A DNA stretch of 54,525 nt, from the UHGV virus genome UHGV-0179380. The stretch is one strand, 5' to 3'. Source of the stretch: a virus. Shown here piece by piece: positions 48,376 through 49,494 of this stretch. Both the position numbers and the translations under genes were made by a program. The notes beneath the pieces were generated by a model. That model searched no databases and was not told the origin of the DNA. It saw nothing but the letters and a program-made list of their open reading frames with translations. Position 1 is the stretch's first letter; every line of letters begins with the position of its first letter.

Positions 48376-49494
48376 ATGTCACAAAGAAAGATCAGCGATG
48401 AACAGTTAATCGCTGAACATAATAACGGTCTGACGTATAAACAGATCGCAGAAAAATATGGCATGGCAAAACGCAACGTCGAACGCCTGGGCGCACGGTT
48501 GGCGAAACGCGGTTTAATATCCACGCGCCGCGCGCCGGGTTTTGGCGTCAATGCTGAGTCATTGCTCGTCGATAAGGATGGCAATGTGATTATGCGCTGG
48601 ATTAAAACAGCCCGTGACCGCGATGAAATGGAAATGCTAATGCAATCTGCTTGTGACGCCTTCACGGAAGAAATACCCCGCGCGGAGGCCGTGCCAGTGC
48701 CGGAAATTGATTTTCAAAAAAGCCTGGCCCTTTATCCGGTATTCGATCTGCATATCGGGGCGCTTGCTCATAAAGCTGAATGCGGTGAGAGCTACGACAC
48801 CGGGATCGCTGAACGCGTGCTAAATGACTTCTTCGACTACGCGGTAGGCGCTGCGCCAATGTCTGAAAAGGCTGTTTTGCTTCTTGGCGGTGATGTGCTT
48901 CACACTGACGGCCTGTTACCAGTGACGCCATCAAGTAATCACGTTTTAGATTGTGATTCACGCTACGCAAAACTGGTTTATGTGGCGATCCGGTCGGTCC
49001 GGCGTGCGGTCGGGAAGATGTTACTAAATCATAAGGATGTCGAGATCCAGGTATTATCCGGTAATCACGACCAATCAGGTATGATCTGGCTACGTGCTGC
49101 GCTGGCGGCTTTTTACGAAGATGAACCGCGTGTGACGGTTGATGTGTCACCTGCTATCGTCCATCACACACAGTACGGCAAAACATTTCTTGCTTACCAC
49201 CACGGGCACACTATCAAAAAGCCAGAAAATTTACTTTCTGCCTGCGTTTCTGACTGGCGGGAGGATTTCGGCAAGTCGTCGTCTGTTTACGCTCATTGTG
49301 GACACTGGCATCACCAACGGCTGATTGAATCATCGTTGGGCGTTGTTGAGTACCACGGCACGTTAGCTGGCAAAGACGCTTATTCAACGAATGGCGGCTG
49401 GCGGTCGCGGCGGCTGGCTGCGGTAATAATTTACAGTCCTGATCACGGGGAGATCGGGCGCTTTGTTTATTACCCTGAATATTCCATTTTGTAA
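48376..49494 (+). CDS. HTH-containing calcineurin-like metallophosphoesterase
   Basis: 372 aa; N-terminal HTH (GLTYKQIAEKYGMAKRNVERL); phosphoesterase motifs GDVLH, GNHD, GHWHH. Confidence 0.55.
   Translation: MSQRKISDEQLIAEHNNGLTYKQIAEKYGMAKRNVERLGARLAKRGLISTRRAPGFGVNAESLLVDKDGNVIMRWIKTARDRDEMEMLMQSACDAFTEEIPRAEAVPVPEIDFQKSLALYPVFDLHIGALAHKAECGESYDTGIAERVLNDFFDYAVGAAPMSEKAVLLLGGDVLHTDGLLPVTPSSNHVLDCDSRYAKLVYVAIRSVRRAVGKMLLNHKDVEIQVLSGNHDQSGMIWLRAALAAFYEDEPRVTVDVSPAIVHHTQYGKTFLAYHHGHTIKKPENLLSACVSDWREDFGKSSSVYAHCGHWHHQRLIESSLGVVEYHGTLAGKDAYSTNGGWRSRRLAAVIIYSPDHGEIGRFVYYPEYSIL

Follow-up and report, generated by a model that had tools for sequence, protein, structure and literature searches.

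A helix-turn-helix metallophosphoesterase encoded between the replication initiator and DnaB genes of an Escherichia coli prophage: a predicted nuclease of a very common phage protein family

Introduction

An open reading frame (ORF) on the plus strand of a prophage, at 48376..49494, lies between the genes for a replication initiator and a replicative helicase, and it encodes a putative DNA-binding fold joined to a phosphoesterase. What does such a protein do at this position, and does the position itself reveal its function? In the original prediction, the ORF was read as an N-terminal helix-turn-helix (HTH) fused to a calcineurin-like metallophosphoesterase (MPE), standing where a helicase loader or primase would be expected and possibly acting as a nuclease or phosphatase in replication initiation. 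Here, we analyzed the ORF in its window, by which we mean the whole stretch of 54,525 nucleotides (UHGV virus genome UHGV-0179380), together with its homologues and their genomic contexts. We propose that the protein acts in phage DNA metabolism as a Mn-dependent nuclease tethered to DNA, a predicted function to which we assign a probability of roughly 0.55.

Results

The gene lies in the replication module of an mEpimmI-group prophage

The window represented a prophage integrated in E. coli and assigned to the mEpimmI group, to which mEp021, mEp010, and others belong (PMC11893012). Its sequence matched that of Escherichia phage MagusPhagus at about 100% identity. The host gene abgT was located at 1-1446, and the end of the window truncated a tyrosine integrase gene (53431-54477). 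Tail, tape-measure, portal, and terminase genes made up the large ORFs of the prophage. Among the prophage ORFs scanned, Erf, SSB, NinB, NinG, and RusA were recognized, and no second recognizable exonuclease was found besides the MPE gene. The HTH-MPE ORF was complete from ATG to stop, encoding 372 amino acids, and a Shine-Dalgarno sequence, GGAGG, was located 10 nt 5' of the ATG (48361..48365, plus strand). Close copies of the gene were present in 35 of 5,426 complete E. coli genomes.

The neighbors named in the original prediction were correct, with an O-like initiator upstream and DnaB downstream. The gene order was S24 repressor, HTH_36 protein, O-like initiator, two tiny ORFs, MPE, DnaB, a MarR/Ren-like gene, and NinB. 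The CI-like S24 repressor gene was located on the minus strand (45715-46362). The two-part replication initiator (46669..47979, plus strand) consisted of an 84-aa HTH_36 protein (46669-46923) followed by a 350-aa Lin1244_N protein (46927-47979) of the PHROG "replication initiation O-like" type, both assigned by Pfam, PHROG, and NCBIfam scans. Inside the initiator gene, four 11-bp iterons were found at 47313-47358 with an A-rich tract after them, which is the classic lambda-type origin layout; therefore, the replication-module context is real. The DnaB-type replicative helicase gene, of the P22 gp12 type, occupied 49513..50934 on the plus strand and started 18 bp past the MPE stop codon. Thus, the MPE gene was co-oriented with the initiator and DnaB genes in the rightward operon and was nearly contiguous with the latter.

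A direct repeat flanked the MPE gene on the plus strand. The left copy of 31 nt, CATTCTGTAAACCGGAGG...ATG, was located at 48348..48378 and ended at the MPE start codon. The right copy (49485..49515) was 81% identical with an exact 13-nt core, TGTAAACCGGAGG; it overlapped the last MPE codons and ended at the DnaB start codon.

The metallophosphoesterase active site is intact and conserved

Next, we analyzed the catalytic domain. The calcineurin-like MPE core spanned residues 114-365 (48715..49470, plus strand) without a separate capping domain. All five MPE signature motifs, namely DxH, GD, GNH(D/E), H, and GHxH, were present. The strings GDVLH, GNHD, and GHWHH, on which the prediction had been based, were all confirmed, and two further ones that it had not listed, VFDLHIG and YHHGHT, were also found. 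Residue conservation was scored over 142 cluster representatives, each at most 57% identical to the query. Motif I, VFDLHIG, was located at residues 122-128 (48739..48759) and carried the DxH signature, in which D124 and H126 were both conserved at 100%. Motif II, GGDVLHTDG, was located at residues 171-179 (48886..48912; D173 100%, H176 97%), and motif III, SGNHDQ, at residues 228-233 (49057..49074; N230 99%, H231 99%). Motif IV, YHHGHT (residues 274-279; 49195..49212), contained H276 at 100%, and motif V, CGHWHH (residues 308-313; 49297..49314), contained H310 and H312 at 95% and 99%, respectively; all of these motifs were read on the plus strand. The loss of metal-binding residues in homologues, named in the original prediction as the finding that would refute it, was not observed. 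In the 142 representatives, the seven metal ligands and the catalytic His of GNHD were conserved at 95-100%. Additionally, a family-specific loop was observed between motifs II and III (48901..48966, plus strand), in which H176, D178, T184, P185, L191, D192, D194, and R196 were each conserved in at least 81% of the representatives. This loop, where the confidence of the structural model was low, may contact the substrate or a partner.

The structural model agreed with this assignment. An AlphaFold2 model, with 22 homologues as input, had a mean pLDDT of 76 and a pTM of 0.69, and included three N-terminal helices and a C-terminal MPE core of the beta-sandwich fold. The core (residues 114-365) was mostly modeled at a pLDDT of 80-97. 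At the level of single-sequence family profiles, the query gave no match to the Pfam Metallophos families PF00149 and PF12850 even at E 0.1, so the MPE assignment rests on the motifs, the fold, and the family. In the family, 20 of 100 diverse homologues matched PF00149 and 15 of 100 matched PF12850 at E<=0.01.

An HTH is predicted at the N-terminus throughout the family

The HTH was predicted at residues 5-50 (48388..48525, plus strand), with helices at residues 8-16, 21-28, and 32-44 in the AlphaFold2 model, and most resembled HTHs of the LuxR/GerE and sigma-70 region 4 types. For this sequence alone, Pfam winged-HTH and HTH matches at residues 11-55 had E values of 0.003-0.04, all under the gathering scores. 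Stronger matches were obtained from the 100 diverse homologues, where HTH_1 was matched by 21, HTH_8 by 15, and Sigma70_r4_2 by 10, with best E values of 1.5e-9 for Sigma70_r4_2 and 2.4e-8 for GerE. When the family profile was compared with the PDB, a resemblance to GerE/LuxR was observed at E 0.026. Furthermore, an iterative profile search seeded with residues 1-58 recovered the N-termini of 116 of the 142 family representatives. By sequence profiles, then, the predicted HTH is a family-wide property, although it is sub-threshold in the query sequence. The fusion of an N-terminal HTH to a calcineurin-like phosphoesterase was thus borne out by the motifs, the model, and the family profiles. 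The two domains were joined by a linker (48553..48663, plus strand) comprising a beta-hairpin at residues 60-77, with the family-conserved G69 and W75, and a helix at residues 82-96, modeled at a pLDDT of about 50-60.

The protein belongs to a very common, catalogued phage family

The protein was a member of PHROG 704, whose HMM it matched over its full length (E 5e-138; residues 4-368 against profile positions 2-387 of 390). The PHROG scan also returned families 20703, 20762, 284, 3855, and 32460, and gave no match to PHROG 221. By tblastn, HTH-MPE relatives were found in 2,044 phage records, and 4,338 representatives of 50%-identity clusters matched at E<=1e-3. Together with the PHROG 704 match, these counts go well beyond what chance would give. 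Members from T1-like Drexlerviridae, from Dhillonvirus HK578 (gp59), and from Jerseyvirus were 42-66% identical to the window protein, with the same HTH and MPE architecture and the conserved residues. In the Drexlerviridae pan-genome, the MPE gene, named "exonuclease", is persistent and present in 508 of 522 genomes (PMC13164509). The window protein was 100% identical to the MagusPhagus "DNA repair exonuclease" XNS39334.1. Thus, the protein is already deposited and annotated, and it counts as an ordinary representative of a family that is known, catalogued, and very common. The PHROG 704 name, "DNA repair exonuclease", is a similarity-based annotation; members are also called "putative phosphoesterase". 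Our literature search found no functional study of any PHROG 704 member, and papers on Lamassu and on Zorya/Druantia that it returned had no bearing on the family. Likewise, the paper on the mEpimmI group does not discuss the HTH-MPE gene (PMC11893012), and a fold search of BFVD returned only uncharacterized phage MPEs.

The position next to DnaB is specific to one lineage

To place the gene in its contexts, ORFs were called and clustered in 87 loci, and a related-locus search was run with a 12-sequence alignment. In 11 of 12 close relatives, the MPE gene occupied the interval between the initiator gene, which carries the iterons in the window, and the DnaB gene, whose start lay 18 bp away. 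This arrangement is what would be expected of a dedicated replication-initiation factor that replaces a helicase loader or primase, is brought to the origin through its HTH, and acts on or with DnaB. Such a role would also find a precedent in the related phage MPE Bxb1 gp47, which is essential for DNA replication (discussed below). However, the scans with Pfam, PHROG, and NCBIfam found no AAA+/DnaC, lambda-P, DnaD/DnaB_2, Toprim/zinc-finger, or AEP domain in the protein, and hence no feature of a loader or a primase. The closest DnaB homologues outside the group were the P22-type gp12 proteins (56% identity), whose genes directly adjoin the O-like gene 18 without any such gene between them. 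Therefore, an initiator and helicase pair without an intervening gene is normal, and nothing is missing from it that the MPE would have to supply.

Even within the mEpimmI group, other genes can intervene. KilAC/Rha-like or zinc-ribbon genes may be present upstream of the MPE gene, and in mEp021 an HNH endonuclease gene separated it from DnaB. The order initiator-MPE-DnaB was limited to the mEpimmI lineage, and elsewhere in the homologue contexts examined the MPE gene was unlinked to any helicase, in contrast to its position in the window. In T1-like phages, the order was primase, SNF2 helicase, VRR-NUC, Dam, small genes, and MPE, followed by holin and endolysin. In HK578, the MPE gene came after the lysis genes, just ahead of the genome end and the terminase, and this phage also encoded a polymerase, a helicase-primase, and a gp2.5-like annealing protein with a separate exonuclease adjoining it. 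In Jersey-like phages, the gene was within the tail module, whereas its neighbors in Vibrio, Yersinia, Rhodobacter, and Thermus phages were lysis, head, or nucleotide-metabolism genes. The family is found mostly in phages where it adjoins no helicase and where the replication machinery differs, from the SNF2 helicase and primase of T1-like phages to the helicase-primase and DNA polymerase of HK578. Taken together, these observations make a dedicated initiation factor decidedly unlikely. The predicted helicase-loader or primase slot and the specific role in initiation were not supported, whereas the other part of the prediction, a nuclease or phosphatase, survived in the sense that nuclease is the best-supported predicted activity.

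In every context, the gene lay within or at the edge of a set of DNA- or nucleotide-metabolism genes. In 16 of the 87 loci, representing four divergent MPE lineages, a HAD PNKP-type phosphatase (PF25109) and a dNMP kinase (PF21448) were encoded directly downstream, and the same pair followed the MPE gene in Thermus phage Lalka8. Other recurrent neighbors across divergent lineages were HNH homing endonucleases and, occasionally, a MazZ-like diphosphohydrolase, and the recurrent functional neighbors in the 87 loci were limited to these three kinds. In Drexlerviridae, PNK and dNMP kinase are the commonest genes right after the exonuclease, and a persistent "exonuclease-holin-endolysin-spanin" block has been described (PMC13164509). 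The phosphatase and dNMP kinase neighborhood suits a nucleotide substrate as well as it suits DNA.

The frequent location of the gene at the early/late boundary, adjoining lysis or packaging genes, raised the idea of a primarily DNA-binding regulator, which would, for example, set the timing of late genes or lysis or serve as a directionality factor or another cofactor, while its MPE domain would act as a sensor or moonlight. The resemblance of the HTH to sigma region 4 and LuxR, as well as the moonlighting of Bxb1 gp47 as a recombination directionality factor, would be in line with this idea. Nevertheless, the catalytic residues were near-invariant across thousands of sequences, which argues that catalysis is the selected function. 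Moreover, the mEpimmI group already has Q-like and N-like antiterminators for regulation (PMC11893012), and the integrase of the prophage was a tyrosine recombinase with its own small upstream gene. We therefore regard a primarily regulatory protein as very improbable. The narrower version of it, a directionality factor for a serine integrase like Bxb1 gp47, was rejected on the type of the integrase.

Nuclease-type MPEs are the nearest structural and, among those tested, profile relatives

We then compared the domain with known MPEs. A Foldseek search of the PDB returned Mre11 of M. jannaschii first (E 2e-6), and PolD DP1, E. coli SbcD, GpdQ, LpxH, and Vps29 ranked behind it. For the MPE domain, neither single-protein nor profile searches gave a significant PDB sequence match. 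The best non-significant ones (E 0.6-1.3) were P. putida MPE (6NVO) and Thermotoga SbcD/Mre11, with motif II aligned as GD(F/L)LH.

The likeness to Mre11/SbcD lies in the fold, where they are the best matches, in the nuclease-type MPE core, and in motif II, whose GD(L/V)(F/L)H form is shared with archaeal, eukaryotic, and Thermotoga Mre11 (the Mre11 motif GDLFH). In contrast to Mre11/SbcD, the window protein lacks the capping domain and the C-terminal Rad50/SbcC-binding region, and has an N-terminal HTH instead. No Rad50/SbcC gene was found in the prophage or in the homologue contexts examined, and the Pfam and NCBIfam scans gave no SbcD/Mre11 family HMM match. A canonical Mre11/SbcD was therefore rejected, given the missing capping domain, the missing Rad50 partner, and the negative HMM results. 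PolD DP1, a proofreading exonuclease, differs in that the window protein has neither an OB fold nor a PolD partner; neither T1-like nor mEpimmI phages carry a DNA polymerase gene.

P. putida MPE is a small stand-alone nuclease MPE, and its His81 and His113 align with H176 and H231 of the window protein. It differs in that it has no HTH and is a cellular protein, and the match to it was non-significant (E 0.64). Encoded in the Lhr-MPE repair operon, it is a Mn-dependent endonuclease that acts on ssDNA, and PMC7826289 reports that DNA cleavage requires His81 and His113, whereas hydrolysis of bis-pNPP does not.

Among phage proteins, we compared an MPE-only profile by hhalign with the Bxb1 gp47 family and obtained a probability of 78.6% and E 1.7e-5 over 133 columns covering motifs II-V. 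The control profiles of SbcD and lambda NinI gave 8.4% and 0.8%, respectively; both were shallow (78-100% and 95-100% identity within the profile), so the ranking is only indicative. Within that limit, the profile alignment suggests that gp47-type MPEs are the closest characterized relatives of those tested, through a relationship that appears real but distant. The MPEs of mycobacteriophage Cluster A (PHROG 221), such as Bxb1 gp47, L5 gp54, and A10ZJ24 gp48, are likewise encoded among replication genes, and the Bxb1 gp47 family resembles the window family in the insert that separates motifs II and III. Unlike the window protein, gp47 (255 aa, PHROG 221) lacks an HTH and carries motif I at its N-terminus, has GDVLD as motif II where the window family has GDxLH, and is a directionality factor of a serine integrase, an enzyme that the window prophage does not have. 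According to Savinov 2012, as cited in PMC11795197, gp47 is both a recombination directionality factor and essential for phage DNA replication. It shows weak exonuclease activity, and its top structural neighbors are Mre11 and DP1 (PMC11795197), the same as those of the window protein. A10ZJ24 gp48 is a phosphodiesterase. In vitro it breaks down DNA in linear, plasmid, and genomic form; in vivo it fragments the DNA of the host, and phage DNA replication in M. tuberculosis depends on it (PMC12287305). Other mycobacteriophage MPEs, such as D29 gp66, are reported to act on cAMP and small esters, as cited in PMC12287305.

Two further activities of the superfamily were weighed against these results. 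The first is a phosphodiesterase or phosphatase of nucleotides or other small molecules, such as dNMP/NMP derivatives, cyclic nucleotides, or Ap4A-type compounds, which would act in salvage or anti-defense signaling, with the HTH serving only for regulation or localization. The N-terminal HTH is conserved family-wide, however, as is the motif II His, which in P. putida MPE matters for DNA and not for a small diester, and both the top structural and the best profile matches were nucleases. A small-molecule enzyme is thus doubtful but deserves to be kept in mind. The second is Ser/Thr protein phosphatase activity, as in lambda NinI (PP-lambda), which is the MPE classically found in lambdoid nin regions. 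NinI belongs to the same superfamily and to the early operon of a temperate coliphage, and the window gene is similarly placed in an early-right operon with NinB and NinG. Nevertheless, NinI has the PPP-family signatures of motifs II and III (GDxVDRG/GNHE) and no HTH, and no PPP-family HMM match was obtained for the window protein in the Pfam and NCBIfam scans. A protein phosphatase is accordingly extremely unlikely.

Discussion

These comparisons favor a predicted DNA-tethered, Mn-dependent nuclease of phage DNA metabolism. We infer a DNA substrate because of the HTH, the nuclease-type motif II His, the structural neighbors, and the precedent of gp47 and gp48. Points that count against this reading are the non-significant sequence matches to solved nucleases, the missing Pfam Metallophos match of the query, the separate exonuclease of HK578, the small-molecule substrates of other mycobacteriophage MPEs, and a gene neighborhood that suits nucleotides equally well. 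In the proposed mechanism, the protein would be produced along with the initiator and DnaB from the early rightward (replication) operon, and the LuxR/sigma-r4-like HTH at its N-terminus would keep it on DNA. The C-terminal domain, a putative binuclear Mn2+-type MPE, would hydrolyze DNA phosphodiester bonds and would belong to the nuclease branch of MPEs, with Mre11/SbcD, PolD DP1, P. putida MPE, and gp47/gp48. It would work without a Rad50/SbcC partner or a capping domain, and the HTH probably supplies the DNA contact instead. The likely job would be cutting or resecting DNA for phage replication or recombination, breaking down host DNA for nucleotides, or both; a role of this kind is suggested by the dNMP kinase and phosphatase neighborhood and by the precedent of gp48.

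A bolder version would make the protein an HTH-directed, site-specific nuclease that phages relying on the host polymerase, namely the mEpimmI and T1-like phages, require for replication. It would, for example, nick or resect phage DNA at a particular sequence and thereby initiate replication by a rolling-circle or recombination-dependent route; alternatively, it might destroy host DNA selectively while sparing phage DNA. We consider this version speculative and rather unlikely. If it were true, it would provide the first function for one of the commonest uncharacterized genes of phage DNA metabolism.

The general prediction of a DNA-tethered nuclease matters because this very common phage protein, known by a similarity-based name, is now linked to mycobacteriophage MPEs that are required for replication and damage host DNA and, by a second link, to the nuclease-specific histidine of P. 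putida MPE. It gives a concrete hypothesis that is cheap to pursue, namely that of a nuclease that depends on Mn and on H176 and is tethered to DNA. The phages concerned, including T1-like phages, Webervirus, and Jerseyvirus, are widely used in therapy collections. Should the gene prove essential or its product degrade host DNA, the result would have consequences for phage engineering and for our view of how phages take over the host.

Two other candidate connections were considered and set aside. A dispersed motif, CCATTTTGTAWAC, was examined as a binding site of the HTH. Its copy at the end of the gene belonged to the DnaB leader and, in mEp021, followed the HNH gene; its matches in Jersey-like and HK578-like phages were coding coincidences inside the MPE gene. 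The motif comparison across mEp021, Jersey-like, and HK578-like phages found no evidence linking it to the HTH-MPE protein. The other candidate was a cognate exonuclease of the Erf annealing protein, an attractive reading in the prophage, where no other exonuclease was seen, but not a general one. HK578 carries the MPE gene plus a separate exonuclease, so the MPE is not simply "the" recombination exonuclease.

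A direct repeat flanks the metallophosphoesterase gene

We observed a 31-nt direct repeat, the two copies of which (48348-48378 and 49485-49515; 81% identity) lie on either side of the metallophosphoesterase (MPE) gene. Its exact core, TGTAAACCGGAGG, occurs twice in the window, compared with 0.06 expected occurrences. Each copy terminates at the ATG of the following gene, the left one at that of the MPE gene and the right one at that of the DnaB helicase gene, and the two copies are offset by 1137 bp, which is the length of the cassette. The repeat resembles a translation-initiation region that was duplicated, or a module boundary, as a remnant of MPE gene insertion upstream of DnaB.

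Neighbors of the MPE gene in other phages

A three-gene order, in which the HTH-MPE gene is followed by a HAD PNKP-type phosphatase gene and then a dNMP kinase gene, was conserved in Klebsiella T1-like, Jersey-like, Yersinia, metagenomic, and Thermus phages (compared loci L025-L031, L038, L039, L047, L048, L050, L053-L055, L079, and L008, and Thermus phage Lalka8, L006). In Lalka8, an RNA ligase gene comes after this string. Insertions of HNH_3 homing endonuclease genes directly adjacent to the MPE gene recur across five divergent lineages (mEp021, L089, at 3963-4466; L022, L056, L061, L062, L075, L081, L084, L085, and L005); in mEp021, the HNH_3 gene is placed between MPE and DnaB.

In mycobacteriophage Bxb1 (L091, 5098-6788), the MPE gene gp47 is located two genes from gp45, which is annotated as "sigma-K factor". 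In the family to which the window's MPE belongs, by contrast, an HTH resembling sigma region 4 is part of the enzyme's own polypeptide. The resemblance between this proximity and the HTH-MPE fusion may be a coincidence.

Initiator genes and a probable origin

The initiator region contains two ORFs, 46669-46923 (84 aa, HTH_36) and 46927-47979 (350 aa, Lin1244_N/O-like), which share a reading frame and are separated only by one stop and one more codon. Relatives likewise have two ORFs, with lengths of 84-111 aa and about 350 aa. The pair may represent an initiator that has been split, or a candidate for read-through. Positions 47313-47400, within the O-like initiator gene, hold four 11-bp iterons (consensus AAAGGGTCATG; 4.2 copies), after which comes an A/G-rich tract; this segment is a probable lambda-type replication origin.

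Downstream of the initiator and ahead of the MPE gene is a 42-aa ORF (48086-48214), annotated as hypothetical in MagusPhagus, for which no family match was found. Its C-terminal half is strongly hydrophobic, and the ORF might encode a small membrane peptide.

A dispersed 13-mer

The 13-mer CCATTTTGTAWAC is scattered over the window (11340, 12879, 16311/16340, 32176, 37908/37976, 45593, 46436, and 49484), with 10 matches at ≤1 mismatch compared with 0.22 expected. Inverted pairs with a 16-nt spacer were observed at 16311/16340 and around 32176. The repressor gene has one copy on either side, and a further copy lies within the DnaB leader; these three positions are all conserved in mEp021 and in the relatives L009-L018 and L034. 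Several copies are near nutL, nutR1, and nutR2 as located in the mEpimmI paper (PMC11893012). The 13-mer may correspond to an operator, a promoter, or an element associated with nut sites.

Prophage ends

The window is a complete integrated prophage. Its left edge (1-1446) is the host abgT transporter gene, and the left attachment site is expected at around 1450-1600. The right edge (53431-54525) encodes a tyrosine integrase, the N-terminus of which extends beyond the window.
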